64,000 nt of DNA, taken from assembly GCA_963737125.1 (NCBI GenBank), contig CAVTRL010000001.1:1758355-1822354 (forward strand). The letters run 5' to 3'. The position numbers were made by a program, and so were the translations under genes. The notes beneath the pieces are model-generated. The model did no database searches and was not told the DNA's origin. It saw only the letters and a program-made list of their open reading frames with translations. This stretch comes from an uncultured Chloroflexia bacterium (GTDB taxonomy: Bacteria > Chloroflexota > UBA5177). Each line of letters starts with the position of its first letter. Position 1 is the first letter of the stretch. Of this stretch, positions 6,431-62,989 are shown piece by piece.

Positions 6431-6530
6431 GGATGAACTCCTCTAGTACGAACGAAGGGAAAGCCGCTCGATTCTATAGACCTGGGCGGGGCGCGACCAA
6501 GGCGGGAAAACGAACGTACAGGATTACAGC

Positions 6531-23737: not shown

Positions 23738-26567
23738 ATGATGGTGGACGGGCACGCGCTGGTTCATCGTGCGTTTCACGCGTTGCCGGAAGACCTCGCG
23801 ACTTCGGCCGGCGAACCGACCAATGCGGTGTTGGGCTTCACCAACATCGTTCTGAAAGTGATGGCCGAGAAGCGGCCGTCGCACATCCTGATGGCCATGG
23901 ATCGGCCGGTGCCCACCTTCCGGCACGAGCGGTTTGCCGATTACAAGGCGACCCGGCCGCCGATGCCCAGGATCCTGGCGGGACAGTTTGCAAGAGTGCG
24001 GGAGGTCGCGGACGCGCTCGGTATTCGCATTTTCGAGCTCGACGGGTACGAAGCCGACGATGTCCTGGGCACGCTGGCCGGAGAAGCCGAACGAGAGGGA
24101 ATCGACACACTGATCGTTACCGGCGATCTTGACGCGCTGCAGCTGGTGTCGGACCGGGTTCACGTGCTGACGCCGGGGCGAGGCGTGGCGGAGACTACCG
24201 AGTATGACGTGGACGCGGTGCGGAATCGGTATGGCATCGAGCCGGGCCAGCTTCCGGATTGGAAGGCGCTGGTTGGGGACACTTCCGACAACATTCCGGG
24301 CGTCCGCGGAATTGGCAACAAGGGCGCGACAAAACTGGTCGCCGAGTTCGGTTCGCTGGAAGGCATATTTGCGCACCTCGACGAACTGCCGGCGCGCATG
24401 AAGCAGCTGCTGGAGGACGCCGCGGACCAGGCGTACGAAAGCCGCGAGCTGGCGACTATACTCCGGAACGCGCCGATCGAGCTGCCCGTCGAGGACACCC
24501 GGAATACGGGCGGCGACCGCGCGAAACTGGTAGAGCTATTTCGCGATCTGGAGTTCTACAGCCTGATCGAGCGCATTCAGAGCGCTCTGCCACGGGCGGC
24601 CAGTGAGCCGGCATGGAAAAAGCACGACACGGGCCCGGAACAGCTTGCCATGTTCGAGATCGAAACCCTGGAGACGCCGGGGACGGCGAACGGCGGCGGC
24701 TTTGGTTCGGTCCCGGCGCCAGTACTGCCGCCAGCAGCCGATTTGGGATCGCACGTGCGGACCACGGTGGTACGTTCAGAGGAGGAGCTGCGAGCGCTGG
24801 TGCGGGATCTGTCCAACGCCGACATCTTCGCATTTGATACCGAGACGACGTCCACCGATCCGATGCGTGCCCGGTTGGTCGGGCTCTCGTTTTCCACGGA
24901 GCGGCGGGCCGGTTGGTACGTTCCGGTCAATCACGCCGAGGGCCAGCAGCTCGAAATCGAAGTGGTGCTCAAAGCGCTGCGACCGCTGCTGGCGGATCCA
25001 GGCAAGGGCGAAAGTCGGGCACAACCTGAAGTACGACTATGCCGTGATGGCGAACTACGGGATTCGCCTGGCCGGGCTGGAGTTCGACACCATGGTGGCC
25101 GCGTACCTGGTGGAGCAGACCGGCCGAAATCTTTCGCTGGACGCTCTGGCCCTGAAATACGCGCACGTCGAAATGGTGCCGATCAGCGCGTTGATCGGGA
25201 AAGGCAAGTCGCAGATCACGATGGACCGCGTCGATATTGACGTGGCGGGTGAGTATGCGGCGGAGGATGCTGCCCTCACACTTGAGCTGAAGGGTCTACT
25301 GGAGCCGGAGCTCGCCAAAATGGAGCTGACCGAGCTATTCCACACGGTGGAAATGCCGCTGGTGCGCGTGCTGGCCGAGATGGAGCTTGTGGGAGTGAAG
25401 CTCGATACCCAGGTGCTGGCGCAAATGTCGGTTGAAATGAGCGACATTATCGGCCGACTGGAGGCCAACATCTACGAACTGGCGGGTGGCCGATTCAACA
25501 TCAACTCCACCCAGCAACTGGGACAGCTGCTGTTCGTGCAACTCAAGCTGCCGTCCGGCCGCCGCACAAAAACCGGGTTCTCGACGGACAATGAAGTGCT
25601 CGAGGGGCTGCGCGGCAAGCATCCAATCGTCGACGAATTACTGCAGTACCGGCAACTCGTAAAGCTGCGGAGCACGTACATCGACGCGCTGCCGGTGCTG
25701 ATCAATCCGGAAACTGGACGGGTGCATACGGACTATAACCAGTGCTCGACCTCGACCGGACGGCTGAGCTCATCGAGTCCCAATTTGCAGAACATTCCAA
25801 TTCGAGGAGACATCGGCCGGAAAATCCGCCGCGCTTTCATTCCACTGGAGAAGGACCACGTGCTGCTGACCGCGGATTATTCGCAGATCGAGCTGCGCGT
25901 GCTGGCGTCGATGTCGCACGACCCGAAATTGGTGGAAGCGTTCCGCTCCGGATTGGACGTGCATCGCGCGACCGCGTCGGCGGTGTTTGGCGTCGACCTG
26001 GATGCCGTTACGCCCGACCAACGCCGGATCGCGAAAATCGTGAACTTCGGGATTATCTACGGCATCGGCGAGAACCGGCTGGCACACGAGACCGGGATTT
26101 CACGGGCTGAAGCCGCCGAGTTCATAGCGAACTACAATCGCACCTATGCCGGGGTCAAGGCCTTCATGGATGACATGCGCCGGCGTGCGGTGCTGTACCA
26201 GTATGTTTCCACGCTGCTGAACCGACGCCGGTACCTACCCGATATACACTCGTCCAATCCCGGCATTCGCACCGCGGCCGAGCGGGCGGCGATCAACATG
26301 CCGATCCAGGGCACTGCCGCAGACATCATCAAACTGGCCATGATCCGGCTGCAGAATGAGATCAGGGACCGGTTTCCGGACACCCACATGGTGCTGCAGG
26401 TGCACGACGAACTCGTGTTTGACGTTCCGCTGAGCCGCTTAACCGAGCTGGCGCGACTCGTGCAGGACGTCATGGAGCACGCGCTGCCGCTTGACGTTCC
26501 ACTGGAGATCGACATGAAGGTGGGAGACGACTGGTACGACATGGCGCCGCTGGAACGGGTGAGCTAG
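23738..26567 (+). CDS. polA: DNA polymerase I (single apparent frameshift near 25006)
   Basis: 5'-nuclease, 3'-5' exo-like and polymerase domains across track ORFs 23738..25240 and 24603..26567; frames switch at a GGG run (25006-25008) between ..LLADPGK and AKVGHNLKYD... Confidence 0.85.
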
Positions 26568-28681: not shown

Positions 28682-29464
28682 TTGAACATCGTCGTCTGCA
28701 TGAAGCAGGTCCCGGACACCACGGCTCGCCGCGAGCTGCTTTCGGACTTCCGGCTCAAACGCGAGGGCGTCGACAACGTGATCAATCCGTTCGATGAGTA
28801 CGCCATCGAAGAGGCGCTGCGGCTGCGCGACGTACACGGTGGTGAAGTGGCAATCGTCACAATGGGACCGCCGGGGGCCGAAGAGTCCATTCGCAAGGCC
28901 CTGGCCATGGGCGCGGACCGAGGAGTGCTGATTACCGATCCGGCCCTGGTGGGCACGGATTGGAGCGGGACTTGCACGGTGCTGGCAAAGGCGCTGACTC
29001 GATCTTCCTTCGACCTGGTAATGCTGGGCACGGAGAGCACCGACGCGCGATCCGGTCTGGTGCCGGGCGGATTGTCCGAGATACTCGACCTTCCGCTGGT
29101 GACATACGCCATGCGAGTCGAGATCTCGGGATCGACGGTCCACCTCGACCGGCAGATTGCCGGCGGATACGCCGAGGTATCCACCGAGCTGCCGTGCATC
29201 GTCAGCGTGGTGAAGGGAGCCAATGACCCGCGATACCCGTCGCTTAAGGGAATCATGGCCGCGAAGCGAAAGGAAATCGCCAAGCTTTCGCTTTCCGATC
29301 TAGGGGTCGATCCGCAGGAGGTTGGTTTCGCCGGGGCGCGAACCATTGTCTCGGGCGCAAAAGAGCGCTCGGCGCGGGAGCCCGGCCAGGTTCTGACTCC
29401 GGAGTCAGCGGAGCAAGCGGCAGCCGCCATTGCGGATTTCCTGCAGTCTCGGAAATTTATCTAA
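28682..29464 (+). CDS. etfB: electron transfer flavoprotein beta subunit
   Basis: 260 aa; MNIVVCMKQVPDT.. N-terminus typical of EtfB; intact. Confidence 0.85.
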   Translation: MNIVVCMKQVPDTTARRELLSDFRLKREGVDNVINPFDEYAIEEALRLRDVHGGEVAIVTMGPPGAEESIRKALAMGADRGVLITDPALVGTDWSGTCTVLAKALTRSSFDLVMLGTESTDARSGLVPGGLSEILDLPLVTYAMRVEISGSTVHLDRQIAGGYAEVSTELPCIVSVVKGANDPRYPSLKGIMAAKRKEIAKLSLSDLGVDPQEVGFAGARTIVSGAKERSAREPGQVLTPESAEQAAAAIADFLQSRKFI

Positions 29465-29494: not shown

Positions 29495-30482
29495 ATGGAA
29501 CCACGTGTTCTGGTGTATGTAGAGCAAGAGGATGGCGTGCCGAAGCGTACCGCGCTGGAAGCAGGGAGCAAGGCCGCGGAGCTTGCCGGGAATGGTGATG
29601 GAACCGTAACCGGTGTGGTGCTGGGAGTGGGAGCGGCACGATGCGTCGATGTGCTTCGCCGCCACGGATTCGATGAGATTCTGGTGTGCGAGGATGCCGC
29701 ATTCGGCGATTTTTTGGTCGATCCGCACGTGGAGATCGTGGCCCAGGTGATCGGCAATCGCCGGCCTCGGCGCCGTACTATTTCCCGATACCGGCCACAG
29801 CCGCGATATCGCCGCACGGGTCGCGGCCCGGGTGGGGGCAAGTCTGGTATCCGGTGTGGTCGATCTGACCTGGCGAGACGGTGCATGTTGAGGCGCAGGA
29901 GACGATTTTCGGGGGGAACTACGTCACGACGGTTGAAACTCGAAACGCCACAACCGGTGTGTTTTTGGTTCGGCCGAATGCGTTCGAGGCGCGCGAGACG
30001 CCGCGTGAGGGCGCCATTAGCAACCTAGAGTACGCGAGGGGCGAGCCCACGCAACGTGTCCGAATCGAGAAGGTGGTGGAGGAGCAGGGCGCCCCGATAC
30101 CGCTGGAGGAAGCCGCGATCATCGTGTCCGGCGGCCGGGGGCTGGGCGGACCGGAGCCGTTTCGCGCTCTTGCAGGAGCTTGCCGACGCGCTGGGAGGAG
30201 TGGTGGGAGCTTCTCGCGCGGCGGTCGACGCGGGGTGGATACCGTACTCGCATCAGGTTGGACAGACGGGACGGACGGTCAAGCCGTCGCTCTACATTGC
30301 CGATGGGGATATCCGGAGCGGTGCAGCACCGGGTGGGGATGCAGACCGCAGAGACGATAATCGCAATCAACAAGGACCCGGGTGCGCCGATTTTCACGTT
30401 GTCCGATCTGGCAGTAGTCGGCGACCTCTTTCAAATCGTCCCCGCTTTGACGGCGGAGATCAAGCGTCGGAAGGGAGCCTGA
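29495..30482 (+). CDS. etfA: electron transfer flavoprotein alpha subunit (at least 4 frameshifts)
   Basis: Conserved EtfA segments lie in different frames (29495.., [32 protein letters not shown] in a second frame, 29881.., 30056.., 30180..30482 ending ..[29 protein letters not shown]..). Confidence 0.75.
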
Positions 30483-30484
30483 CC

Positions 30485-31634
30485 CTGAATTTCGACCTTT
30501 CCGACGAACAAATCATGGTGCGAGATCTGGCCCGCGACTTCGCCACGAACGAGATGGCACCGAAGGCGGAGCATTACGACCGGGAGCACTCCGTTTCCGT
30601 ACGACGTGATCCAGGGATTGGCGGAACTCGGTTTCCTGGGGCTCCCTGTACCGGAAGAGTACGGTGGGGCGGGTGCCGACACGCTGACCTACGCGCTGGC
30701 CGTTGAGGAGCTCTCACGCGGTGACGCTTCAGTGGGCATCACGGTAGCAGCTCATACGTCGCTTGGCACCATGCCGTTTCTGCTATTCGGCTCTGAGGAG
30801 CAGAAACACGAATTCGTGCCTCCGCTAGCGCGCGGTGAGTCGCTCTGGTCATTCGGCCTGACGGAGCCCAACGCGGGGTCAGATGCCGGTGCGACGCGCA
30901 CGCAAGCGACGCTGACCGATGGTTCCTGGCGTGTGAACGGGGTGAAATCGTTCATCACGAATTCCGGCACGACCATGAGCGGGGGAGTAACTATCACCGC
31001 CGTTACCGGAACGTTGCCAGACGGTAAGGCGGAGATATCCAATTTGATCGTGCCGAGGGGCACACCCGGGTACTCGATTGCCAAAGACTACGACAAGATG
31101 GGCTGGCGGGCCTCCGACACTCACGAACTGGCGTTCAACGACGCGCAAGTGCCGGAGAACCGGCTGCTCGGCCCACGCGGTGAGGGGTTTCACCAGTTTC
31201 TAACGATTCTCGACGGCGGCCGGATTTCGGTGGCGGCGCTGAGCGTAGGGCTGGCGCAGGCGTGTTATGATGCCTCGTTCAAATACGCGCGCGAGCGGAG
31301 CCAGTTCGGGCGGGCAATCTCGAAATTCCAGGCGATCCAGTTTCGGCTGGCCGATATGGCGACGGAGATCGAGATGGCCCGCTTGATGACGTATAAGGCT
31401 GCCTGGCTGAAGGATGCCGGAAAGGACTTCCGGATGGCTGCCGGCATGGCAAAGCTCTACGCGACGGAAGTGGCGACACGCGCCGCGAACCACGCAGTGC
31501 AGATCCATGGTGGCTACGGAATCATGGAGGAGTTTCCGGTGGCTCGATACTGGCGGGACGTCAAGATCGGTGAAATCGGGGAAGGCACCTCCGAGATCCA
31601 GCGGACGGTTATCGCCCGACTGCTGGGCGCGTAA
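30485..31634 (+). CDS. acyl-CoA dehydrogenase (frameshift near 30600; start approximate)
   Basis: N-terminus ..[36 protein letters not shown].. in one frame, continuing as track ORF 30606..31634 (..[32 protein letters not shown]..). Confidence 0.75.
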
Positions 31635-31714
31635 TACAGTGGGAGTAGACGTCGCGCGTCGACTCGAACGTGCGCCCGCACCGCAGGCACCAGACCTTTC
31701 TAGAAAATAGCGTC

Positions 31715-32901
31715 ATGGAAGAAGTAGTTATTGTCTCGACGGCCCGCACGCCGTTCGGAAAGATGGGCGGCGCTCTCAGCCCATTGAGCGCGATCGATCT
31801 GGGCTCGTGCGTCGATTCGATCCGCGCTGGAACGGGCGCAGGTGCCGTTCGACGAGGTCGACGCAGGTAATCATGGGAACGGTCATCACGGCCGGTCTGG
31901 GTCAGATCCCGGCGCGGCAGGCGGCACTGAAAGCCGGGCTGCCCAAAGAGGTTTCGGCCCTGACGGTCAACAAGGTATGCGCGTCCAGTCTGAAGGCGGT
32001 CAATCTGGCCGCCCAGATGATCCGGGCCGGGGACGCCGACGTGGTGGTGGCGGGAGGCATGGAGAGCATGAGCAATGCTCCGTACCTCTTGCCCGGCGCA
32101 CGTTTCGGATACCGGATGGGCGACGGCGAGCTGGTCGACGCGATGATGCGCGACGGTCTCAACTGTCCTACCGGGTGCGTCCCCATGCACGAGTACGGAA
32201 GCGACGTGGCCGCGGAATTCGAGATCAGCCGGGAGGACCAGGATCGATGGTCGCTGCGCAGCCAGCAGCGGTACGCCGCAGCGCTGGACGCCGGGAAGTT
32301 TTCGGACGAAATCGTGCCAATCTCGGTACCGCAGCGAAAGGGACCGGCACTGCTGGTGGATCGGGACGAACAGCCCCGCCCGGACACGACCTTCGAAGGA
32401 TTGCAGAAGCTCAAGCCGCTCAAGCCGGGGGGCAGTGTGACGGCGGGAAACGCTCCCGGCGTCAACGACGGCGCGGCCGCGCTGGTGGTTATGTCGGGCC
32501 GGAAAGCGGCGGCGCTCGGCGTCACGCCGCTGGCCATTCACCTGGCGCAGGGCGAGGCAAACGACGAGAACCGCTATCTGCATACCGTGCCGGCGGATGC
32601 CATCCTTCGCGCTTTGAAACGGGCGAAGATCGACCTGGATCAGATCGGCCTATTCGAAATAAATGAGGCGTTCGCGGCGGTGACGCTGCGTAGCATGCAA
32701 ATGCTCTCGCTGGACGGCGAGAACGTCAACGTGAACGGCGGAGCAGTGGCGATCGGACATCCGATCGGCGCGTCGGGCGCGCGCATTCTGGGGGCATTGA
32801 TCCTCGAGATGGGCCGCCGCGGCGTGGAGTACGGCGCGGCAGGCATCTGCAGCGGCATGGCGCAGGGTGAGGCGACCGTGGTACGCCTCCCCTTCAGGTA
32901 A
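31715..32901 (+). CDS. acetyl-CoA C-acetyltransferase (thiolase); two frameshifts near 31800-31860
   Basis: MEEVVIVSTARTPFGK.. start; conserved ..VNKVCASSLKAV.. and C-terminal ..NVNGGAVAIGHPIGASGARIL..; N-terminal 45 aa in a different frame from the rest. Confidence 0.8.
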
Positions 32902-32940
32902 AGCGTCCGGGTGGTGTCTTGAGCGGAGCCGAAGCGTATC

Positions 32941-34087
32941 GTGGATATTGAGCTGACCCAGGACGAGACCGACATTCTCGACGTAGTACGGTCGTTCGCA
33001 CGCGAAGAAGTGCTGCCACGCGCAGCGGCGATCGACCGGGACGGTGAGTATCCGGTCGATCTGGTGCGTGCCATGGGGGAACTGGGACTGATGGGCGTGC
33101 CGTTTCCGGAAGAGTACGGCGGCGCAGACCAAAGGTATTTAATGTTTGCGCTGATCGTCGAAGAGCTATGCCGGGCGTGCGCCAGTACCGGCCTGATCAT
33201 GGACGTCAATATCTCGCTGTGCGGCGAGCCCATCTGGCTATTCGGCACCGAAGACCAGAAGCAGAAGTATCTGGGACGGCTGGCGCGCGGAGAGGCGCTG
33301 GGCGCACTGGCGATGACCGAACCGGAGGCAGGCTCGGACGCAGCGTCGATTCGGACGACAGCGGTGAAGGATGGCGATTGCTACGTCCTGAACGGCCGAA
33401 AGATCTTCATCACGAACGGTGAGGTCGCGGACATGTACATCGTGACGGCGGTGACCGACCCCGAGAAGGGAACGCACGGGATCACAGACTTCATCGTCGA
33501 AAAGGCATGGCCGGGTGTCTCATTCACGACTCACTACGAGAAGATGGGCATCCGCGGCGCACCGACCACGGACGTGGTGCTGGAGAACGTCGAGGTGCCG
33601 GTCGAGAACGTGCTGGGCGGCGAGGGAAACGGATTCAAAGTCACGATGGACACGCTCGACGCGGGGCGGATCGGCATCGCGGCGCAGGCGGTCGGTATTG
33701 CGCGCGCGGCGCTGGAGGACGCGACGGAGTACGTCAAGACCCGGCGGCAGTTTGGAAAGTCGATCTGCCGAATTCCAGGGCATGCAGTTCATGCTGGCCG
33801 ACATGGCGACAGCAATTCACGGCGCCAGGCTTTTAACCTTACGGGCGGCCGGTCTGCGCGACGCGAATATCCCGTGCGCGCGGGAATCTTCGATGGCGAA
33901 ACTGTTTGCAGGCGACACGGCGATGAACGTGACGACTGAGGCGGTCCAACTTTTCGGCGGGTACGGCTACATGCAGGAGTATCCAGTGGAGCGCCATATG
34001 CGAGACGCGAAAATCACGCAGATTTACGAGGGTACGCAACAGATCCAGCGAGTGGTGATTGCCCGCCAGGTGTTGAACGCCCGATGA
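32941..34087 (+). CDS. acyl-CoA dehydrogenase (frameshift near 33770)
   Basis: Track ORFs 32941..33939 and 33515..34087 together give a full ACAD (..[32 protein letters not shown]..). Confidence 0.75.
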
Positions 34088-35229
34088 ACTTCACTCTGAC
34101 CGACGATCAGGAAGCTATCCGCGACGCGGTACGCGACTTCGCACAGGGTGAAGTGGCGCCTCGCGCGGCGCAAATCGACCGCGACAATGTCTTTCCGCGC
34201 GATCTGGTGGAGGCGGCGGCGGGGCTCGATCTGCTGGGCATCGTCGTGCCGGAGCAGTACGGCGGGACCGGGCTGGACCATGTCTGCTTCGCGCTCTTCG
34301 TGGAGGAGATCGCGGCCGTCTCGGGCACGCTGGCCGTGATTCTCGACGTGCACACGTCGGTGGGTACCGAACCAATCATTGCTTTCGGAAGTGACGAACA
34401 AAAGCAGCGGTATCTTCCCCGACTGGCGCGCGGGGAGTATCTCGCGGCATTCGCGCTTTCCGAGCCTGAGTCTGGATCGGACGCCGCCAGCCTGACGTCC
34501 AGCGCCACTCTGGTCGACGGCTGTTATCGCTTGAACGGAACGAAGACGTTTATCACCAATGTCGGCGAGGCCGGACTCTACATCGTGATGGCACGCACCG
34601 GCGAGCCGGGAGCTCGCGGCATCTCGGCGTTCATCGTGGAGGCGGACACGCCCGGACTGTCGTTCGGGGCGCCGATGCACAAAATGGGCCTGCGAGGGTC
34701 GTCCACCGGCGAATTAGTGCTGCACAACGTCGAGGTGCCGGTGTCGAACCTGCTGGGCGACGAGGGACAGGGTTTCCGGGTGGCGATGAAGGCTCTGGAC
34801 AGCGGGCGGATCGGGATCAGCGCCCAGGCGGTCGGCCTGGCGCGAGGGGCGCTGGACCTGGCATCGTCGTACGCCACAGGAACGCCAACAGTTCGGCCAG
34901 CCGATTGCGCGCTTTGAGGGCATCCAGTTCATGCTGGCAGACATGGCAACCGCCATCGACGCGTCGCGGCTGATGACGTGGGAGGCAGCGGCACGCTGCG
35001 ACGCGGGGAAGCCCGTTTACGTCGTCGGCGTGCCATGGCAAAGCTGATGTCGACTGATACGGCGATGAAGGTTACGACCGACGCGGTGCAAATCCTGGGC
35101 GGATACGGCTATATCAAAGAGTTTCCGGCCGAGCGGTTCATGCGCGATGCGAAGGCGACCCAGATCTACGAGGGTACCAATCAGATCCAGCGTATCGTCA
35201 TCGCGCGCGACCTGCTGCGCGGTGGATGA
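34084..35229 (+). CDS. acyl-CoA dehydrogenase (frameshifts near 34880 and 35030)
   Basis: Track ORFs 34084..34917 and 34978..35229 plus an intervening third-frame segment (..[16 protein letters not shown]..). Confidence 0.75.
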
Positions 35230-35236
35230 CCCCGGT

Positions 35237-36220
35237 ATGGCGACGCCGAGCACAGATGTGCTGGTCGATGGTTTACGGCGGCGCAACCGGAGAGCTGCCG
35301 GAAGGCTCATCAGCCTGATTGAGGATCAGTCCGCCGAGGTAGAAGCGGTGATGCGGGAGGTGTACCCATACACCGGCAAGGCGTATTTCATCGGCGTCAC
35401 GGGACCGCCGGGCGCCGGAAAGAGCACGGTGGTGGACGAATTGATACGCGTGGTGCGCGAAACGGGTGACGCCATTGCGGTGGTCGCGGTGGATCCGAAC
35501 AGCCCGTTTTCGGGCGGCGCGATTCTGGGGGACCGGATCCGAATGATGCGCCACGCTTCGGATTCCGGTGTGTTCATTCGCAGCATGGGCGCACGCGGGC
35601 ATCTCGGCGGCATCGCCACGGCGACTCTGAACGCCATGTTGATCCTCGATGCCATGGGGAACGATATCGTCCTGGTGGAAACGGTGGGAGTGGGACAGTC
35701 GGAACTGGAGGTGGCGTCGACGGCCGATACCACGATCGTGATTTTGCCGCCGGGCCAGGGGGATGGTGTGCAGGCGATCAAGGCAGGCATCATGGAGATT
35801 GCAGATGTTTACGTCGTAAATAAGGCGGATCATCCCCAGACCAAGCGCACGGTGGCGGAGCTACGCGAACTGCTGAGAACCGCGCCCGTGCAACCGCCAT
35901 GGGTGCCTCCCATCGTGGAAACCATCGGCACACAGAACGCCGGTATTGAAGACCTGTGGGAGGCGATTACCAAGCATCGTGACTACCTGGAGCGAAGCGG
36001 AGAGCTCGAGCAGCGACGGACTGACCGGATCGAGCGCGAGATAGTGGACATCGTGGAAAGGCGTCTGAGATCGGAATTTTTGCTACCACAGCTCCAAACT
36101 GAGGAATTTACCAGCATGGTTCAGCAGGCAGCACGCCGGGAGTTGAGCCCCTACGAGGTGGCGGAACGTCTGTTACCCGCAGACCGACTACCGAGAAAGC
36201 AGGCATCGATTGGACGATAA
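35237..36220 (+). CDS. meaB: MeaB/ArgK-family G-protein chaperone for B12-dependent acyl-CoA mutase
   Basis: P-loop ..[12 protein letters not shown].., ..[10 protein letters not shown].., ..VVNKADH..; start set at MATPSTD within track ORF 35147..36220. Confidence 0.85.
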
Positions 36221-37863
36221 CGCAGGTCTCGAGGCCGAGTTCCAGGCATGGCGCGAGCATCGGTACGGGAAGGATCGCGCCGTTTCATTCACGACTCTTT
36301 CCGATCACGGCATCAAGCCGCTGTATTCGCCGCTCGACACGCCGCCCGCGAGCTTTGAGGCCAAGGTCGGCTGGCCTGCCCAGTACCCGTATACGCGTGG
36401 CATCTACGGAAATATGTATCGCGGCCGTCTCTGGACCATGCGTCAGTTTGCCGGGTTCGGCACAGCTCGGGATACAAACGAGCGGTTTCACTACTTGCTT
36501 GAGCACGGCATGACCGGCCTCTCGGTGGCCTTCGATAATCCCACTCTGATGGGAATCGACTCGGACGATCCGCGCGCGCTGGGAGAGGTGGGACGGACCG
36601 GCGTCGCGATGGATTCGCTGGCCGACATGGAAGTGCTGTTCGAAGGGATTCCACTGGATCGGGTCAGCACCTCGATGACCATCAACGCTCCGGCCGCTGT
36701 TCTGCTGGCAATGTACGTCGCCGTAGGGGAGAAACAGGGCGTTCCGAGCGTTCAACTCACGGGGACGCTACAGAACGACATTTTGAAGGAGTACATCGCC
36801 CAGAAGGAATGGATTTATCCCCCGGCAGCGGGCGTCAAACTGATCGTCGATACGGTTGAATTTGCGATGGAGCACATGCCAAAGTACAACCCGATCAGCA
36901 TCAGCGGCTATCACATTCGCGAAGCGGGCGCGACTGCCGTACAGGAACTGGCTTTCACGATTGCCGACGGCGTGACCTACGTAGAAGCATGCATTGCGAG
37001 GGGCCTGGAGGTGGATGCTTTCGCACCGCGACTCTCGTTCTTCTGGAACTCGCACATCGATTTCTTCGAGGAAATTGCGAAGTTTCGCGCGGCGCGACGC
37101 ATGTGGGCGTCGATCATGCGGGATACGTTCGGAGCGAGGGATCCGAAATCGTGGCTGATGCGTTTCCACACGCAGACGGCGGGAGTGTCGCTCACGGCCC
37201 AGCAGCCCGAGAACAACATCGTGCGGACCGCTCTGGAGGCGATGGCGGCGGTGCTGGGCGGCACGCAGTCGCTCCACACCAACTCGATGGACGAGGTGCT
37301 TGCTTTACCGACCGAGAAGGCGGTTGAAATTGCGCTCCGGACGCAGCAGATCATCGCCCACGAGACCGGCGTGGTGAACACGGTGGACCCACTCGGCGGA
37401 TCGTACTTCGTGGAGGCGCTGACAGACGAATGGAGGCCGGCGCACGCCAATACTTCGCGACGGATCGAGGAGTTGGGCGGCGTGCTGGCAGGGATCGAGG
37501 CCGGATTCTTCCAGCGAGAGATCGGCGAGTCGGCGTTCCACTATCAGCGGCAACTGGAACGCGGCGAGAAGGTGATGGTGGGAGTCAATCAATTCGTGAC
37601 GGACGCGCCGATCGATATTCCCGATACTCAGTATCGATCCCGAGGTGGAACGATCGCAGGTGGCGCGCGTGCTGGAACTCAAAAAAGCCCGGACGGAAAA
37701 CCGCGTACACGACGCGCTGGCGCGGGTAAAACTGGCCGCGGCGGACGGCCGGAACGTCATGCCATCGCTGCTGGCGGCCGTACGCGAGTACGCGACCATT
37801 GGAGAAATGTCGGAAGCAATGAAGGTTGAGTTCGGAAGTTATCGAGAGCCCGCTCTGGTGTAA
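36210..37863 (+). CDS. B12-dependent acyl-CoA mutase, large (substrate-binding) subunit; ICM-like signature; frameshift near 37625
   Basis: ..[18 protein letters not shown].. and ..[16 protein letters not shown].. plus ..[14 protein letters not shown]..; C-terminal 72 aa in a second frame (track ORF 37645..37863). Confidence 0.8.
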
Positions 37864-37904
37864 GCTGCCACGGTGGGCCGCTGGCAAAGTAGGAGTGTGA
37901 AGTC

Positions 37905-38324
37905 GTGGCGGAAGGAAAGATTCGCGTCCTGATGGCAAAAGCGGGGCTGGACGGACACGACCGCGGGGTAAAAGTCGTGTCCCGCGCGCTGCGAGACGCC
38001 GGCATCGAAGTTATTTACACGGGTCTCCATCAGACTCCGGAGGGTGTGGTAAGCGCAGCAGTGCAGGAAGACGTGGACGCAATCGGATTGAGCCTGCTGT
38101 CCGGGGCGCACATGACCCTATTTCCGCGAATTCTGAGCCTCCTGCGAGAAGAGGATGCGGGCGATATCCTGGTGTTCGGCGGAGGAACGATTCCTCAGGG
38201 TGACGTGGCGAGTCTAAAGGCGATGGGCGTGGCGGAGGTCTTCACGCCCGGTGCCTCGACAGTCGATATCGTGGAGTGGGTCCGGACGAACGTGACGAAG
38301 AAGAGCCTGAGCGGGCAGACCTGA
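37905..38324 (+). CDS. acyl-CoA mutase small subunit (B12-binding domain)
   Basis: 139 aa; ..[15 protein letters not shown].. cobalamin-binding DxHxxG motif. Confidence 0.85.
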
Positions 38325-38891: not shown

Positions 38892-39435
38892 ATGGCACGG
38901 GTAACGACCGGTACGGGAGACGAAGGCTGGACCGATCTGCTCGGCTCGGAACGCGTGCCCAAGTACCATCCCCGTCCGGAAACGTTCGGAACGGTCGACG
39001 AGGCGACGTCCGCGCTGGGGCTAGCCCGGGCGCATCTCGAACGATGCGGCGCTCAAAGATCAGATTTACCGGCTCCAGCAGGATCTATACGTGCTGATGG
39101 CGGAGCTCGCGACGCCTGCCGAGAACTACGCCAAAGTCGACTTCAAAATTCGATCGGAACACGTGGAGCGCCTCGAAAAGGAAAGCGAAGTGCTCAAAGC
39201 GGAAGTCGAAATCGGAAAGGTATTCGTGGTGCCGGGGGCGACGGTGGCGGGAGCCGCGCTGGACGTGGCACGCACGGTGGTTCGCCGCGCTGAGCGCCAG
39301 GTGGCCCGGCTTTATCACGAAGGCGACATAACGAACGCATTCGCGCTGCGCTATCTGAACCGACTGTCGGATCTGTTATTCATCATGGCGAGGTACGAGG
39401 AAGCTACGACCAGGGAGCCGCCGGACGACAACTAG
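38892..39435 (+). CDS. PduO-type ATP:cob(I)alamin adenosyltransferase (frameshift near 39050)
   Basis: MARVTTGTGDEGWTDLLGSERVPK.. N-terminus and ..DLYVLMAELATP.. C-terminal half in two frames; stop codon TAG (39433-39435) abuts the inverted repeat. Confidence 0.7.
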
Positions 39436-39451
39436 TGGGTCACTTGTGTTG
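39432..39451. repeat. left terminal inverted repeat (with flanking C-TA)
   Basis: ctagtgggtcacttgtgttg, perfect reverse complement of 45449-45468. Confidence 0.8.
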
Positions 39452-39543
39452 GTCAAAGCCACTGGTTCGTGCTGCTCGTCGTCTCCGGGGTGACCCCTTC
39501 AAGGCGCCACGAGGGAATGGCTCTGGCCGACCCCCTTGACCCA

Positions 39544-40002
39544 CTAAGAGCGACTCGTGGTCAGCGGAAGCCCAAGCAGGAGAATAGCCCGTGCAACCAG
39601 CACCCCTGCTCCCACCGCCACGAGCGCCATGAGGCCATGCAGCACCTCCTCCAGCACCACGGGACCCGGCGAAGTATTAGTGTAAAAACTCTGAAAGCCA
39701 ATGGCGACGAGGCTGAGAAAGAGGACGACTTCACCAGCGAGAGCCAGGGCAGCATACTGTAGGGATTGAAGAGCGCCGCGGTGGTACCTCTGCGGCCGAA
39801 GGAACGCCAGCCAGATGATGCCTCGCTCGGAGGCAACGACAAGAAGACTGAGGGCCACGATGCCGACGATCACCGCCACTCCACATTGAAAAGTCCCCAG
39901 CCCGACACTAATTGGGAGGCCGCTCGGACGGTGAAGGAAGGGTGTGCTGGTGGCTATCCCAGCCAGAACCGCAAGGCCGCCAAGGACGCAGAACGTTTTC
40001 AC
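39544..40002 (-). CDS. hypothetical polytopic membrane protein (family A, copy 1)
   Basis: 152 aa, about 4 TM helices; N-terminal 60 aa clearly paralogous to ORF 42717..43436 (..LAVLAGI(A/G)(T/A)STPFL(H/Q)RP..GTFQ..). Confidence 0.5.
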   Translation of the reverse strand: MKTFCVLGGLAVLAGIATSTPFLHRPSGLPISVGLGTFQCGVAVIVGIVALSLLVVASERGIIWLAFLRPQRYHRGALQSLQYAALALAGEVVLFLSLVAIGFQSFYTNTSPGPVVLEEVLHGLMALVAVGAGVLVARAILLLGLPLTTSRS

Positions 40003-40020
40003 AGCATGTCCGCCTTCAGG

Positions 40021-40548
40021 TCACGGCAGTTGCACGGTACCCCGAAATGTCACCGTTACGGGTCCAGGTGGAGCGTGCTGCCCGTGCACGAATTGCTCCG
40101 TGTACGTTCCGCGCCCACGAGCATGTGCGAACCGCCCCGTGCCCCCGGTAATCGTGAACGTCCCAACCTGGGCAGGTGTACCTGGAGGGACTGGACGGAA
40201 GCAGGCAGAGAACGTGGAGCGGTACGTCAGGCTGTTACCTCCGGCGCCACGAAGCCGCCCCGGTCCTTTCATCGGAATACAGCCGCTCGGATTGGGAACG
40301 CCGACGCTGTGGGAGCGGAGAGTGCTGCGACCGAGGATGGTTGCCGTTCCGCTCGCAACAACCGCCTCCCGCAACTGGTGCGCGTCCGGAAGGTGAGACA
40401 TCCCGTGATAGGTGGCACGAAAGGCTATACGACCGAACAGGCCGCTGGCATGGGTACCAGGAACGGGTGATGAGAGTGCCGCGCACGCTGCAGCAGCAAC
40501 AGCCAACCATGAGAATCGTTGCATCATGTCATCGGACCTCCCTTTCAC
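40021..40548 (-). CDS. hypothetical secreted protein
   Basis: 175 aa; predicted signal peptide (..MMQRFSWLAVAAAACAALSSP..), Gly/Thr-rich beta-like remainder. Confidence 0.45.
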   Translation of the reverse strand: MKGRSDDMMQRFSWLAVAAAACAALSSPVPGTHASGLFGRIAFRATYHGMSHLPDAHQLREAVVASGTATILGRSTLRSHSVGVPNPSGCIPMKGPGRLRGAGGNSLTYRSTFSACFRPVPPGTPAQVGTFTITGGTGRFAHARGRGTYTEQFVHGQHAPPGPVTVTFRGTVQLP

Positions 40549-41987
40549 CGTACCCCGTCAATTCGGACGCTGAAGTCGGCGCAGTGTGCCGAAACGATGT
40601 CTACGCGCAGCCTGCCTTTGATCCGCACCGTGGTATAAAACTCCCCCGGTCCCGGCATCAGACCGCGAACAGGAACTGCCACGCGCTTCGCGGCCGCGGT
40701 CTGCACGGCGATGCGCACGCCGGTCACACCGGGACACGGAGGTGCATCGGGATACACGCCCGCCGTTACCTGCCACGGTCCGGTCGCGGTAAACCACGGG
40801 GAATACGTATGGAGCTGCGGTCTGGCGTTGTACGTGCCGGAGAAGAAGATCGCCGGGACCACGTCATGCCACGTCTTGCCGCTGTCGCTGCTGCGCACCA
40901 ACCGGCGCAATCTGCCTGCGGCGTAGCAGGTAGAGGCGCTGGGGCACGCGATGGCAGTAAGGGGAGACGCGCCCGGGAGGTTCACCACCCTCCAGCTCTT
41001 CCCTCCATCGGTCGTCCTGGCGGTGGTTCCTGCCCTGCCCAGGGCAATGCAGGTGGTCGGCGTGGGACAGGAAAGGGCACCCATGCCCGGGGTCAGCACG
41101 TGGTTGGCTCCTGGACCCGGTCCTCCAGCCACGGCGCCGAGTCCGGGGATCAAGTGGCGCTTCCAGGTGCGGAACCCGTCCTGGGTGGTAACGGCCACTG
41201 CGTGGTACACGCCGCCATGGTAGTAGCTCGCCCCGGCGAAACAGATGCGCTGCGTTGGACAGGCGATCGCGTGGAACTCGTAGCACGCTAAGGGGGAACA
41301 CGCCGCTCCGCCAACATGGCTGATGAGCCACCGTTTCGCGCCGCCCGTGCTCCGTCCAATTACGTTGTAGCCACCCGCGTAACAGACCGTGGCGCTGGGG
41401 CAGGAGAGCGGCACTGATACACCGCCGCCAAAATCACGCGTCAGCGCTCCCGTGCTCCTCCAGCTCCTGCCGCCATCCATGGTCCGGATGACTTCGTCCC
41501 CCGAGGGGGGCCGAAAGAGCTGAACCGAGCAAGTAGACCCATTTACGCAGGCAAGTCCGGGGAGAGCGCATCCTAGCGGGTGAGATCGTTCCGCCCAGGT
41601 GCGGCCGCCATTAGTGGTGTTCAGCACAGGAAGCGGAGAGGAGCCATTGAGGCAGCCTTCGGTGAGGGCAAAGCAGGCACTGATAGCGGGACAGGTGATC
41701 GTGGCAAGGGAACTCGGCGACCGGCTGGGCTGTGCCTGCCAGGTGGCCCCCGCGTCATGCGTACTGAGGATCGAGCCCTGACTTCCGACGACATAGCACA
41801 CGCGCACGCTGGGACACGAGATGTCTCGGAGCGTTTCCTCCGCCGTTCCCGAGGGTAGGGCGGATTGCTCAGTCGCGGGAGACGCAGCCCGCGTTGTGAA
41901 ATCAGGACTGCCGGCTCCTGCTGCGGTGAGCACGAGAGCGAGCAGGAAGGGCACGAGTACGGAATGATGCTGCCGTATATGTGTCAC
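40545..41987 (-). CDS. secreted Asp-box (BNR)-repeat beta-propeller protein with repeated CPxxxxC motifs
   Basis: About 7 repeats each with C-P-x-x-x-x-C-(Y/F)-x-x-G followed by an Asp-box-like [ST]xDxGx[ST]W (e.g. TTDGGKSWR, SSDSGKTWH); signal-peptide-like start at a GTG (..VTHIRQHHSVLVPFLLALVLTAAGAGS..). The 5' part of track ORF 40545..42509 is rejected. Confidence 0.55.
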   Translation of the reverse strand: MTHIRQHHSVLVPFLLALVLTAAGAGSPDFTTRAASPATEQSALPSGTAEETLRDISCPSVRVCYVVGSQGSILSTHDAGATWQAQPSRSPSSLATITCPAISACFALTEGCLNGSSPLPVLNTTNGGRTWAERSHPLGCALPGLACVNGSTCSVQLFRPPSGDEVIRTMDGGRSWRSTGALTRDFGGGVSVPLSCPSATVCYAGGYNVIGRSTGGAKRWLISHVGGAACSPLACYEFHAIACPTQRICFAGASYYHGGVYHAVAVTTQDGFRTWKRHLIPGLGAVAGGPGPGANHVLTPGMGALSCPTPTTCIALGRAGTTARTTDGGKSWRVVNLPGASPLTAIACPSASTCYAAGRLRRLVRSSDSGKTWHDVVPAIFFSGTYNARPQLHTYSPWFTATGPWQVTAGVYPDAPPCPGVTGVRIAVQTAAAKRVAVPVRGLMPGPGEFYTTVRIKGRLRVDIVSAHCADFSVRIDGVR

Positions 41988-41989
41988 GG

Positions 41990-42490
41990 CTATGCCGCTC
42001 GACGAGCCAGGAATAGTAGCGCGACGGGGCCCAGGATAATTCCTATGACTGCGGCGATGAGGAAGCCGAAGGCGGCCGCAGTGAGAAACGCGTATCCGGC
42101 CGTTGGGCCGGCCGTGCAGCTCGCTTTCTCGAAGCAGGGATTGGCGTAGCCGGCGGACAGTGCGGCTACGACCAGATCGACAAAGGCAAGGATACCGCCA
42201 AGGGCATAGATGATCGTAGCCTGACCGTAGATGCCGTCTCGCGCGCGAGCAGCTGAGAAGAGCAGCGCACCGCACGGTAGCAGCGCGAAGGCGAGGCTGG
42301 TGAGGAACACAGATCCGCCATATCGCTGCGCAATTGAACCGGAGAGGAGCGCGAGGGCCGAGAGGATGGCACAGAGTGGGCCGGCCAGCACGACCGCCCA
42401 CGCCACGTGTCTGCCCGCGGACATGCCCGGCTCGTCCCCTCGTATCGTCAGTTGCTGTTTCCTGTGCCGTGTTGCAGCGGTCGGTTCCAT
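41990..42490 (-). CDS. hypothetical polytopic membrane protein (family B, copy 1)
   Basis: 166 aa; shares (F/Y)ANPC(F/W)..(A/P)SCT(A/G)G loop motif and TM layout with ORF 43438..43935. Confidence 0.5.
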   Translation of the reverse strand: MEPTAATRHRKQQLTIRGDEPGMSAGRHVAWAVVLAGPLCAILSALALLSGSIAQRYGGSVFLTSLAFALLPCGALLFSAARARDGIYGQATIIYALGGILAFVDLVVAALSAGYANPCFEKASCTAGPTAGYAFLTAAAFGFLIAAVIGIILGPVALLFLARRAA

Positions 42491-42716
42491 GAGTCCCTCC
42501 TTGCAGCACTCACTCTATGCCTGTCCTGCACAGAACGCGTGAGGATGACTACCGATGGTCTCTTGGGGAGAATCACGTAGGTGGACAGCCGGGTACCGCG
42601 ACCGAGGGGACAGCGCAGATATGTTTGCTCGGACGATTCCGTATACCTGGCCGATCTAGGCCCACCGAAAAGGTAGCGCATCACCGTCTCAATCATCGAC
42701 CGTTTGTGCTCCAGAG

Positions 42717-43436
42717 CTAGCGTCCAACCAAGAACGGATAGAGTTCGGCCCTGTGCTTCCACCGCCCCACCAGCACGTAGGAGCCGGAGGATGGGAAGAA
42801 GAGATAGCCGCAATAGAACAGGAATCGCCTGGCGTTCTTGTCGCGCCTATATGCATCCGACATGGGATCCAAGCGCAGAACCGGGCCAGCGGTCTGCGGA
42901 CTGTCTCCAAACATAACCGCCTTACCCGATGCGAGGTTCCATCCACGCACCGTGATAACGTCTGTGAGCGCGGGGCCTGCCGCCGAGACAGCCTTTTGGT
43001 ACGGGGCACGCGGCCTGGTCCTCGTGTGGAGGATCCCGTCCACTGTGGACGGATTGACCCACAGCGGAGCTCGACCAAACGCGTGGTGAAAGGCCCCGGC
43101 GAGTCGCTGCATTGGAGCTCGGGGTGGGCAATTCTTCGGCACCGGCCCGTAGTGGGGGGACGGCTTGTTAGCGCTGACCATTGCGGCGCCGGCCGGCCAG
43201 AGTACGCCAGCCGCAGACGCCACGGCCAGGAGAGCCAGCATCACCATCCCGTCTGCCGCCGCCACCACCACTTGAAAGGTCCCCGGTCCGACACTCGATG
43301 AGAGGCTGGTCGGACGTTGAAGGAACGGCGTGCTGGCACCTATCCCCGCCAGAACCGCAAGGGCACCAATGACCAGGAACGACTTCACGGACAACTGCTG
43401 TATCCGCGGCGACCCTTTGGGCATCTCCCCAGACAT
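42717..43436 (-). CDS. hypothetical membrane protein (family A, copy 2) with divergent C-terminal region
   Basis: 239 aa; N-terminus paralogous to 39544..40002; C-terminal half unlike copy 1 and may be partly non-coding read-through. Confidence 0.4.
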   Translation of the reverse strand: MSGEMPKGSPRIQQLSVKSFLVIGALAVLAGIGASTPFLQRPTSLSSSVGPGTFQVVVAAADGMVMLALLAVASAAGVLWPAGAAMVSANKPSPHYGPVPKNCPPRAPMQRLAGAFHHAFGRAPLWVNPSTVDGILHTRTRPRAPYQKAVSAAGPALTDVITVRGWNLASGKAVMFGDSPQTAGPVLRLDPMSDAYRRDKNARRFLFYCGYLFFPSSGSYVLVGRWKHRAELYPFLVGR

Positions 43437-43437
43437 G

Positions 43438-43935
43438 TCAGGGCCCGTGCCCGCTCACAATGTGCTCAGTCGATCGTCGTGCCGCGCGAAGGAGCAGGGG
43501 CGAAAGAAGCAGAGCAACGGCTGCGGCCAGCAGCAAGACGAGTAGCGCAGCCTTGAGGATGCTGTCCTCGAGGGATGACCCGCCCGTACAGCTTGGGTTG
43601 TCCCAGCAGGGGTTGGCGAAGACCCTGAACAGGGCGACCGCTCCGATGCCGGGCAGAAGAACCACCCCTCCTGCAAGAGACGCGCTCCTGGCTGCAGGCA
43701 GATCCGCCCGGCGCGCCAATTTCGCTGCCCGGAGGAGCATCTGGCAGGGGACCATCCCAAGGCCGACTACCCCAACCACGATGGCTATTTGTACGCCGAT
43801 GGGGAAGCGCAATACTCTGTCGTCGTACAGAGCTGTGCCAAGGACGACGGCACACACTCCGAGGGCAGCGAGCACCGCACCGGCGACTGCTGCGAGGTAG
43901 GCCATCCATTGTGAGATCGGAGCGGAGCGGGTCAT
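43438..43935 (-). CDS. hypothetical polytopic membrane protein (family B, copy 2)
   Basis: 165 aa; ..FANPCWDNPSCTGG.. motif paralogous to 41990..42490. Confidence 0.5.
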   Translation of the reverse strand: MTRSAPISQWMAYLAAVAGAVLAALGVCAVVLGTALYDDRVLRFPIGVQIAIVVGVVGLGMVPCQMLLRAAKLARRADLPAARSASLAGGVVLLPGIGAVALFRVFANPCWDNPSCTGGSSLEDSILKAALLVLLLAAAVALLLSPLLLRAARRSTEHIVSGHGP

Positions 43936-44063
43936 CTCGGTGCCTCGATAGCTCGACTTTATACCGGCGCAGAGGGGAAGACATCCGTAAGACCACGGAA
44001 GATCTCGTCCTCAGCCGAAGAGATGGGGAGCGGCCCCGCCAGCCGGCTGCGCTCGACTCCTGG

Positions 44064-44089
44064 CGGGTCACGTGTATTGGTCACAACCC
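44064..44089. repeat. internal degenerate copy of the left terminal repeat
   Basis: gcgggtcacgtgtattggtcacaacc vs left end gtgggtcacttgtgttggtcaaagcc: 21/26 identical, same orientation as the left end, no TA flank. Confidence 0.55.
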
Positions 44090-44094
44090 TTGTC

Positions 44095-45421
44095 TCAGGC
44101 TGCCCGTCGGCGGTGGAGTGGCCGCCGGGTATAGGCACCTGAGCCACCGAGGGCATGACGTCGCTCCCGTGCTCGCTGGCGTCGGGCCTGCCGTTTCCCA
44201 CCCCACTCGAAGGGCGTCGGCTCTCGGTTCCAGGCACGGGCTGTTGCCTCCAGCCAGTCGATGATCTCCTCGGGCGTCTTGGGATGGGCGCCGTCGAGTG
44301 CGCGCCGCTTGAGGATGCGCTGAATCGACTCGCACATATTGAGGTACGAGCCGCCCAGCGGGGTGAAGAGGGGCATGATCCCGTGGTGGAAGAGCCACAG
44401 GATGAGATCGACGGTGTAGTGCCCGGTGAGGTTATCCCAGACCAGGAGCATGCGGAGCGGTGGGAGGTCCTGAGGAAGGGTGGTGCGGATCGTCAGCCCC
44501 TCTTGCCAGCGCTGCCAGCACCGTCGGTTCTCCTCCGGCGGGAGGGCGTCCGGCTTAGGCAGGGTTGCCAGGATGGCCAGCAACTCCGCTTCGAGCCAGG
44601 GATGCAGGATGGCATTAGCACCGCTTCGCACCCCTTTCACCCGCACGTGCCCAGTGGCGGGATGGAAGAGCGTCAACTGCTTGGCCGTGCCTTCCCGGAC
44701 ATACTCATGGGGATAGCGAACCGGCTCTCCAGCCGGATGCCAGTGGGAGCCGGGATAGGGGAGCGTCCCATACGGACCCGCCTCGTCTTCTGCCCAGACC
44801 GGCGGGAGGGACTGGGTATATGCCGCCTGGATCAACTTTTTTTCGCTGCGGCATCGGGATCGACGACCGTCACGGTTCCACTTTTCCGCTTCCTGACCAC
44901 GGTCCCTGTCTCGCACCAACTCTGATCCTTGGTCCAGACAAAGCCGGCATCGTGCAAGACGCACCAGATGGTGTAGGTGCTGATCCCGGGCAGGCCATCC
45001 GGCGCGCGCGTCGCAGCGTGGTGAGTGACCACGTCGCCGTGCCATCCGTGTTCCGATCCGGTGTGCGCCGCACCTCCCGCAGAATCCGCTCTTGCTCGGT
45101 CTCGGTGTAGCGCTTCGGCTGCCCACCACCATGATGCTCGACCAGCGCGTCGATCCCGTCCCGGTTGAACCGGGTCACCAGATGGGCAACGGCATCGCCA
45201 CTCTTGCGACCGGCACGGCGTGCTGCGCTCTCGAAGCTTGCGCCATCCGCGACCGCGAGGAGTTCCTTGGCTCGCACCACCTGAGCGGCGGGATCGGTGC
45301 GCGATCGACTCACTAGTTCAAGGTGGAGGCGTTCGTTGGGCGTAAGGGGACGCAAGGGATCTTTCTGGCGAGCCGGCATGGCAGACTCCGGGGAAGGCGA
45401 GGCGGCGAATACCTGCCACAA
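44095..45421 (-). CDS. IS630/Tc1-family DDE transposase, split over three reading frames
   Basis: N-terminal HTH frame (track ORF 44870..45421), middle frame (44832..45032: ..[31 protein letters not shown]), DDE_3 frame (44095..45132: ..LVWDNLTGH.., ..[16 protein letters not shown]..); the last switch is at an A7 tract (plus-strand T7 at 44837-44843). Confidence 0.7.
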
Positions 45422-59091: not shown

Positions 59092-60804
<1,713 letters not shown>

Positions 60805-62459: not shown

Positions 62460-62950
62460 GTAGCTGTGACCCCGCGAGGAGACAGCCGACGGTACTGCAA
62501 GCAAGTGTTCGGCGATACGAGTGCTGGACGTCGTGCAATTCCGGGGCGAGGTGACGGCAGTGCTGGTCGCGCGAGCGCAATCGTAGACGTGCTGCTCGTT
62601 CTGTCGCGACGAACTGCGGTTACGACTTCTGCTCGGACGTGACCTGCACCGATTGGCTCGATCGGCACCCACGCTTCGATGTGGTGTATCACATCACGAT
62701 TCGTGCCGGACACTGGATCCGCTTCCGCCTGAAAGTGCAGACGAACGACGGCGAGCCGGTGCCGACGGTCATTCCGGTGTGGCGGCGCGCCAACTGGGCC
62801 GAACGCGAAGTATGGGACCTGTTTGGCATCGAGTTTGACGGGCATCCCGACCTGCGACGGCTTCATGCTGCCGGAGGGATGGATCGGACATCCCCTGCGC
62901 AAAGACTACCCGCAGACTCAAATCGCACTGCCGCGTCCCAAGAGCCGACA
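62460..62950 (+). CDS. nuoC: NADH-quinone oxidoreductase subunit C (frameshifts; boundaries approximate)
   Basis: ..RFDVVYHITIRAGHWIRFRLKV..ANWAEREVWDLFGIEFDGHPDLRRL.. with N- and C-terminal parts in other frames. Confidence 0.6.
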
Positions 62951-62989
62951 AGGTTAGGCGATTCGATTCCATGGTCACCACCGAACGCA

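Follow-up and report, generated by a model that had tools for sequence, protein, structure and literature searches.

A predicted stand-alone isobutyryl-CoA mutase-type enzyme in an acyl-CoA gene cluster of an uncultured Chloroflexia bacterium

The adenosylcobalamin (AdoCbl)-dependent acyl-coenzyme A (CoA) mutases include isobutyryl-CoA mutase (ICM), methylmalonyl-CoA mutase (MCM), 2-hydroxyisobutyryl-CoA mutase (HCM) and pivalyl-CoA mutase (PCM), and the described members of these groups frame the analysis of a locus in a 64,000-nucleotide (64-kb) stretch of DNA from an uncultured Chloroflexia bacterium (contig CAVTRL010000001.1), the whole of which is called here the window. Two adjacent genes on its plus strand, 36210..37862 (large subunit) and 37905..38324 (small subunit), are likely to encode a stand-alone AdoCbl-dependent mutase of the ICM type, predicted from sequence to interconvert isobutyryl-CoA and butyryl-CoA. 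The enzyme adds a new, predicted member to a widespread kind of mutase that is already known.

The two-gene ICM of Streptomyces cinnamonensis, IcmA/IcmB (EC 5.4.99.13), resembles the window pair in the size of the large (~550-566 amino acids, aa) and small (~136-139 aa) subunits, in the DxHxxG motif and in His-on cobalamin binding. The Streptomyces icmA and icmB genes are unlinked and serve polyketide precursor supply, whereas the window genes are adjacent, belong to Chloroflexota and stand together with meaB, a PduO-type adenosyltransferase gene and β-oxidation genes; the likeness is one of layout and motifs. In Syntrophothermus lipocalidus, the predicted ICM cluster Slip_0757-0760, for which conversion of isobutyryl-CoA to butyryl-CoA for β-oxidation has been proposed, likewise encodes proteins of the large and the small domain together with a MeaB-like protein and a cob(I)alamin adenosyltransferase (PMC5017805); it differs in coming from an anaerobic syntroph of another phylum, is itself a prediction, and is likened to the window by gene content only. 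IcmF (PDB 4xc6, NF045497) shares with the window the Phe/Ala/Gln residues, the Leu at 113 and the B12 domain, G-protein and substrate barrel modules, but comprises one ~1,100-aa polypeptide where the window has three separate genes, and its barrel is ~36% identical. HcmA/HcmB (PDB 4r3u) displays the split layout with a MeaB-like partner and has Gln198, Lys199, Glu200 and Leu113 in common with the window protein, but carries Ile90/Asp117 where the latter has Phe80/Ala107, and HCM clusters contain a 2-hydroxyisobutyric acid (2-HIBA)-CoA ligase gene that the window cluster lacks. The split MCMs of Ilyobacter polytropus and Brevibacillus laterosporus also combine a split architecture with MeaB, the large subunit being 54-57% identical, but preserve Tyr, Arg and Gln113, with epimerase, carboxyltransferase or decarboxylase genes adjoining. 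The unfused large/small/chaperone arrangement, which a first-pass annotation of this DNA had considered worth noting, is standard, being found in HCM, PCM, split MCM and predicted Syntrophothermus ICM clusters (PMC5017805).

The large subunit encoded by 36210..37862 comprises 550 aa after correction of a frameshift described below and contains Phe80, Ala107, Leu113 and Gln198, with RQFAGFG, YIAQKEW and SGYH as active-site motifs. The RQFAGFG and IAQKEW motifs pointed out in the first-pass annotation are indeed present in the translation, YIAQKEW being encoded within the plus-strand open reading frame (ORF) 36210-37829, and the GYH at residues 233-235 provides a Tyr-His pair that MCM also displays at the matching position. 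The small, B12-binding subunit (37905..38324) is intact, comprises 139 aa, reads DGHDRG at residues 16-21 for the DxHxxG motif and scores 160 bits against TIGR00640 (cutoff 57). The MM_CoA_mutase barrel of the large subunit, which reaches 752 bits against TIGR00641 (cutoff 304), and the B12-binding domain with its DxHxxG motif place the predicted pair in the AdoCbl-dependent acyl-CoA mutase superfamily. The narrower equivalog models give lower scores, with the large and small subunits at 621 and 118 bits against the MCM model NF006944 (cutoff 876), and the large subunit at 343 bits against the IcmF model NF045497 (cutoff 1500). JGI and NCBI give the public homologues generic names, "methylmalonyl-CoA mutase N-terminal domain" or "family protein", in agreement with the window protein, which NCBIfam accepts into the acyl-CoA mutase N-terminal-domain family but which stays under the equivalog cutoffs for MCM and IcmF. 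The best PDB matches of the small subunit are HcmB (4r3u_C, 2e-43) and then 2yxb from Aeropyrum. No second mutase is found in the 64-kb window.

The specificity residues of the corrected protein were compared with (i) the solved structures of human MCM, P. shermanii MutB and A. tertiaricarbonis HcmA; (ii) annotated plasmid records, comprising M. petroleiphilum HcmA, Xaut_5021, Xaut_5043, an Ideonella IcmF, named by the PGAP equivalog model, and the Brevibacillus split MCM; and (iii) three Streptomyces plasmid copies. In residue-by-residue, gap-free alignments Phe80 pairs with the Tyr of RQYAGFST in human MCM, and Gln198 with the Arg in the FMVRNTY motif that human and P. shermanii MCM share, which bears out the Tyr-to-Phe and Arg-to-Gln replacements of the first-pass annotation and leaves the window protein without the carboxylate-binding Tyr89/Arg207 of MCM (P. 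shermanii numbering). At the positions of Tyr89, Asp117 and Arg207, MCMs and split MCMs display Tyr, Ala and Arg; HCMs display Ile, Asp and Gln (I90, D117 and Q208 in M. petroleiphilum HcmA, in keeping with published numbers); Xaut_5043, which we take, with Xaut_5044, to be the characterised PCM, has Leu, no aligned equivalent and Asn; IcmF shows Phe, Ala and Gln; and the window protein presents Phe80, Ala107 and Gln198, with the Phe and Gln of the ICM type at MCM Tyr89 and Arg207. Neither Ile90/Asp117 of HCM (HcmA numbering) nor the RQLIGLG, FIANHQF and VGQH pattern of Xaut_5043 occurs in the window protein. Five alignment columns (80, 113, 198, 199 and 200) part 72 Phe/Gln from 18 Tyr/Arg sequences, and at each of them the window protein agrees with the Phe/Gln group; moreover, Phe80 and Gln198 are invariant among the closest Chloroflexota homologues.

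The Phe/Gln pair is, we assume, the published determinant of ICM. The specificity residues of S. cinnamonensis IcmA, Phe and Gln, presumably carry the same numbers, 80 and 198, and F598/Q742, which we take to be the IcmF numbering, fits the 144 residues that separate Phe and Gln in the IcmF reference. The Streptomyces plasmid copies retrieved are all of the Tyr/Arg type, and a search with an actinobacterial Phe/Gln query found no Streptomyces Phe/Gln copy among plasmid records. The PDB 5req chain reads RQFAGFST where human MCM reads RQYAGFST; it is presumably the Y89F mutant of P. shermanii MCM and incidentally confirms the Tyr89 alignment column. In addition, Asn110 (36537-36539, motif FDNPT) is nearly invariant in the Chloroflexota subclade of the window, a position occupied by Leu or Met in other Phe/Gln, HCM and MCM sequences and by Ser in IcmF.

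The neighbours listed in the first-pass annotation are all identified, comprising three acyl-CoA dehydrogenases (ACADs), a thiolase, EtfAB, a MeaB-type chaperone and a PduO-type adenosyltransferase. In the proposed pathway, the adenosyltransferase would make AdoCbl, MeaB would control how the cofactor is loaded onto the small subunit and removed from it, and the large subunit would perform the reversible radical 1,2-rearrangement that turns isobutyryl-CoA, a product of valine or isobutyrate, into n-butyryl-CoA. With EtfAB, the short-chain ACADs, and then the thiolase, would carry butyryl-CoA towards two acetyl-CoA, a route that would bypass the sequence from propionyl-CoA through methylmalonyl-CoA to succinyl-CoA. 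A homologue search of the 64-kb window found neither a PccB-type carboxyltransferase nor a methylmalonyl-CoA epimerase.

A GTDB scan with the Chloroflexota alignment provided a sample of at least 80 loci, which have identities of 55-66% and are spread over numerous phyla of both bacteria and archaea; the best identity among the matches listed is 66%, and the closest relatives, L089 and L090, lie outside that list and were found through their contigs. Among the 80 loci listed, 69 show Phe/Ala/Gln and 11 show Tyr/Ala/Arg. Genes for ACAD, thiolase, EtfB and hydroxyacyl-CoA dehydrogenase lie within 10 kb of 18, 17, 10 and 11 of the 69 listed Phe/Gln loci, respectively, and within 10 kb of none of the 11 listed Tyr/Arg loci. 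A PccB-like carboxyltransferase (59-65% identity) and a methylmalonyl-CoA epimerase occur near five of the 11 listed Tyr/Arg loci, and a PccB-like gene (55-59% identity) accompanies four listed Phe/Gln loci, three of which also have an epimerase nearby; the epimerase counts were made with the epimerase half only of the Brevibacillus mce fusion as query. L021 (Chloroflexia, 6968-11572) and L056 (Anaerolineales, 5914-11650) carry both mutase types, 1.5-2.5 kb apart, with the Tyr/Arg copy adjoining mce (epimerase) and the PccB-like gene, so that the PccB-like and epimerase genes near the Phe/Gln copies there are accounted for by the second mutase, of the Tyr/Arg type. The two types thus coexist as distinct paralogues, and these loci offer a natural pair for studying the specificity switch. 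Cultured organisms follow the same division, since the Tyr/Arg gene of Ilyobacter polytropus lies in a cluster with mce, a carboxylase beta subunit, OadG, a biotin protein and a Na+ decarboxylase, and the Phe/Gln genes of Natronorubrum aibiense and Deinococcus sp. have ACAD or MaoC genes nearby. Gene context, the specificity residues and the five separating columns all support the first-pass proposal of an ICM-type enzyme rather than an MCM. Among the relatives, the gene at 7652-8494 of L008 (a Brevibacillus laterosporus plasmid), annotated "mce, methylmalonyl-CoA epimerase", is a fusion in which the N-terminal ~135 residues form a B12-binding small subunit, 61% identical to that of the window, and the C-terminal half is the epimerase.

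In a neighbour-joining tree, the window protein falls inside a Chloroflexota subclade with 100/100 bootstrap. The point estimate places the stand-alone Phe/Gln sequences together, apart from split MCM, classical MCM, HCM, IcmF and PCM, and no clade with at least 60% bootstrap mixes the Phe/Gln and Tyr/Arg types, in a backbone that lacks resolution either way. The phylogenetic placement suggested as a check in the first-pass annotation consequently neither confirms nor contradicts the ICM type: in the bootstrap, the single Phe/Gln clade is recovered in 7/100 replicates and the deep branches are poorly separated.

This bootstrap value is one of several observations that weigh against the ICM assignment. 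The large subunit is 57% identical to the split Tyr/Arg MCM of Brevibacillus, compared with 54-58% to distant Phe/Gln members, and the top-scoring solved structure is HcmA (4r3u, 1.2e-162), followed by MCM, with IcmF much more distant. The link between the clade of the window and S. cinnamonensis IcmA, a characterised stand-alone ICM, is one of layout, motifs and presumed residue numbers. Besides, the β-oxidation route appears locally incomplete, as no hydroxyacyl-CoA dehydrogenase is found in the 64-kb window, where enoyl-CoA hydratase was not searched for. Finally, 11 listed Phe/Gln loci, including members of Nitrospira, Gemmatimonadota and Acidobacteriota (L009, L038, L040, L057, L060, L070, L074, L075, L077, L079 and L086), have within a few kb a different carboxyltransferase, 31-36% identical to PccB. 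It may be a subunit of the methylcrotonyl-CoA-carboxylase type, which would tie these mutases to wider branched-chain amino-acid catabolism. As bootstrap and identity are indecisive, the ICM assignment is carried by the active-site residues and the gene context. A history in which the stand-alone Phe/Gln mutases are not one ICM family, and the switch from Tyr/Arg to Phe/Gln, and perhaps the substrate range too, had several origins among them, with the Asn110/three-ACAD Chloroflexota subclade acting on broader or different branched short acyl-CoAs, is an idea to which we attach little weight.

The same cluster occurs with intact genes in GCA_025449555.1 (L089, 81% identity), which covers it from the second ACAD onwards only, and in GCA_963731225.1 (L090, 76% identity), where the order is etfB, etfA, ACAD, thiolase, ACAD, ACAD, meaB, the large-subunit gene (550 aa), the small-subunit gene and PduO; tsaD, rimI, tsaB and tsaE come next, and two short unannotated opposite-strand ORFs are interspersed in the locus. 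All genes of the window cluster lie on the plus strand, and several carry insertions or deletions (indels). The electron-transfer flavoprotein beta subunit gene, etfB (28682..29464; Pfam ETF, 3.4e-42), is intact and aligns with L090 EtfB end to end in one frame at 67% identity. The alpha subunit gene, etfA (29495..30480), contains at least two indels, with partial ETF/ETF_alpha matches in separate ORFs, and the 327-aa EtfA of L090 aligns to the window across frames 1, 2 and 3. The first ACAD, short-chain/butyryl-CoA-dehydrogenase-like (30500..31634, start approximate), comprises the Pfam ACAD N, M and C domains and is 78% identical to its L090 counterpart from residue 27; its N-terminus lies in another frame, N-domain positions 1-33 being in the preceding ORF. 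The acetyl-CoA C-acetyltransferase, or thiolase (31715..32901; Pfam Thiolase_N/Thiolase_C; PRK08235, 467 bits), has a frameshift near 31850, with residues 1-48 of the L090 thiolase in frame 2 and residues 50-391 in frame 1. The second ACAD (32941..34087), with a truncated C-terminal Pfam domain, contains one inserted base near 33766; tblastn shifts from frame 1 to frame 2 at ~33770, and the 1-nucleotide (nt) insertion is window-specific in the DNA alignment. The third ACAD (34084..35229, identified by Pfam) has indels near 34878 and 35012-35030, and its three-frame translation departs from the frame of the L090 protein and then returns.

The MeaB-type G-protein chaperone gene (35237..36220; TIGR00750, 335 bits, cutoff 241) is intact, with the P-loop GPPGAGKS and 62% identity to L090 MeaB, and its start is likely the ATG at 35237 rather than 35147. 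The PduO-type cob(I)alamin adenosyltransferase gene (38892..39435; Pfam Cob_adeno_trans, TIGR00636) has a frameshift near 39042-39100, Cob_adeno_trans positions 1-49 and 68-170 lying in two overlapping ORFs, and the 1-nt insertion is again window-specific. Downstream, positions 39436-45400 hold ~6 kb of extra DNA compared with L089 and L090, where PduO directly precedes tsaD, rimI, tsaB and tsaE. This segment, which may be an insertion, encodes on the minus strand a 654-aa protein with BNR/Asp-box repeats (40545-42509). It also contains a minus-strand ORF (44095-45132) whose DDE_3 transposase-like match is weak, along with several ORFs that match nothing in Pfam. Elsewhere in the window, an intact gene at 8579-10453 encodes the 624-aa selenocysteine-specific elongation factor SelB, which indicates that the organism uses selenoproteins.

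The large-subunit gene is itself not an intact ORF in this assembly, as it carries one uncompensated and one compensated frameshift, a feature overlooked in the first-pass annotation. The listed ORF 36210-37829 leaves the frame at ~37621, where one extra base displaces the last 79 residues; its final ~70 residues are Arg/Gly-rich nonsense, whereas the conserved C-terminus (...GSYREPALV) is found in the +1 frame, with the true end at 37862. In agreement, tblastn places residues 1-471 of the closest full-length homologue, P0002 (83% identity), on 36210-37622 and residues 471-550 on 37621-37860, in different frames, and deletion of one C of the CCC run at 37620-37622 provides a protein of 550 aa, the length of nearly all the closest homologues. 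In the compensated pair, one nt is lost near 37429 and one is gained near 37460, so that the conserved RMExxAxxYF reads WRPAHANTS. Programmed frameshifting at 37621 was considered and rejected, since there is no slippery motif and the examined homologues display a single ORF of ~550 aa.

Alternative identities for the enzyme have to be weighed against an ICM. Taken at the word of the homologue annotations, it would be a split MCM of propionate/succinate metabolism, an assignment in keeping with the JGI and NCBI names, the TIGR00641 domain score and the 57% identity to the Brevibacillus split MCM, which adjoins epimerase and carboxyltransferase genes. It is nevertheless very improbable: the names are generic family labels without functional assignment, Phe and Gln stand in place of the Tyr and Arg that bind the carboxylate, the MCM equivalog score lies under its cutoff, epimerase and PccB homologues are absent from the 64-kb window, and in genomes with both types mce and PccB adjoin the Tyr/Arg copy and not the Phe/Gln copy. 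A mutase acting on a different substrate without a carboxylate, for example pivalyl/isovaleryl-CoA, 2-hydroxyisobutyryl/3-hydroxybutyryl-CoA or a longer branched acyl-CoA destined for the three ACADs, seems unlikely. HcmA gives the best PDB score, Leu113, Gln198, Lys199 and Glu200 are common to HCM and the window protein, the presence of three ACAD paralogues points to several substrates, the Asn110 of FDNPT is particular to this Chloroflexota subclade, a carboxyltransferase that is no more than a distant relative of PccB occurs near some listed Phe/Gln loci, and IcmF slowly turns over isovaleryl-CoA and pivalyl-CoA. The reported action of IcmF on pivalyl-CoA and isovaleryl-CoA (PMC10481361) counts in the same direction. 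On the opposite side, HCM is countered by Phe80/Ala107 in place of Ile90/Asp117 and by the absence of a 2-HIBA-CoA ligase-like gene, unlike in the HCM clusters L001 and L002, and Xaut_5043 differs strongly from the window protein at all signature motifs (Leu/Asn; QH for YH).

The damage to the cluster raises another alternative, in which these genes are real, recently inactivated pseudogenes and the pathway has been lost in this lineage. At least 11 indels are found in ~10 kb (29.5-39.4 kb), they affect seven of the ten cluster genes and lie outside long homopolymers, and the flanking stretches at 1-23 kb upstream (ValRS, SelB, RF1 and others) and 45-53 kb downstream (TsaD, RimI, ABC1, PMT, PAP2) appear intact. 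Such patchy and locally dense lesions count against an ICM active in this organism, but a recent inactivation is doubtful. All lesions inspected closely are indels, with no nonsense substitutions seen. In a leave-one-out comparison with 97 homologues, the window large subunit breaks four columns conserved at 97% or more, all inside the frameshifted patch, with no substitutions at highly conserved positions outside it. The split-gene regions (23738-26567, 29495-35229, 38892-39435, 57896-60800 and 62639-63727) extend beyond the cluster to polA, urocanase, a YkuD-domain gene (ykuD) and nuoC/D, whose joint decay is unlikely; in polA, the 5'-3' exonuclease and part of the 3'-5' exonuclease lie in one ORF and the remainder in another. 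Compensating indels 30 nt apart are also more easily explained by local miscalling. Compared with the L090 proteins, EtfB, MeaB, the small subunit, TsaD, RimI, TsaE, ABC1, PMT and PAP2 are intact in the window. Clustering of the indels at GATC motifs was examined and dropped, three of eight lesions lying near GATC against a background of 15%, which is not convincing. Since the damage is restricted to indels, strikes unrelated and essential genes and leaves conserved residues in place, assembly error is favored over decay; the frameshifts are most likely errors of this assembly, so the mutase gene is probably intact in the organism, and the patchy distribution suggests an unevenly polished long-read assembly. 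In practice this calls for caution, since protein calls made on this assembly, such as the 539-aa P0001, are truncated artefacts.

For an ICM-type mutase, the name carried by the gene bears on the metabolism attributed to its host. Among the listed GTDB relatives, almost all of the Phe/Gln forms (69, against 11 of the Tyr/Arg type) bear generic MCM names, which indicates that the mislabelling is systematic; that ICM-type enzymes are mislabelled as MCM has been noted earlier (PMC7764203, citing Cracan 2010). Labelling the window gene as methylmalonyl-CoA mutase would wrongly imply a link to propionate/succinate metabolism, whereas an ICM label predicts that carbon from valine or isobutyrate would enter β-oxidation as butyryl-CoA, or take the reverse direction.

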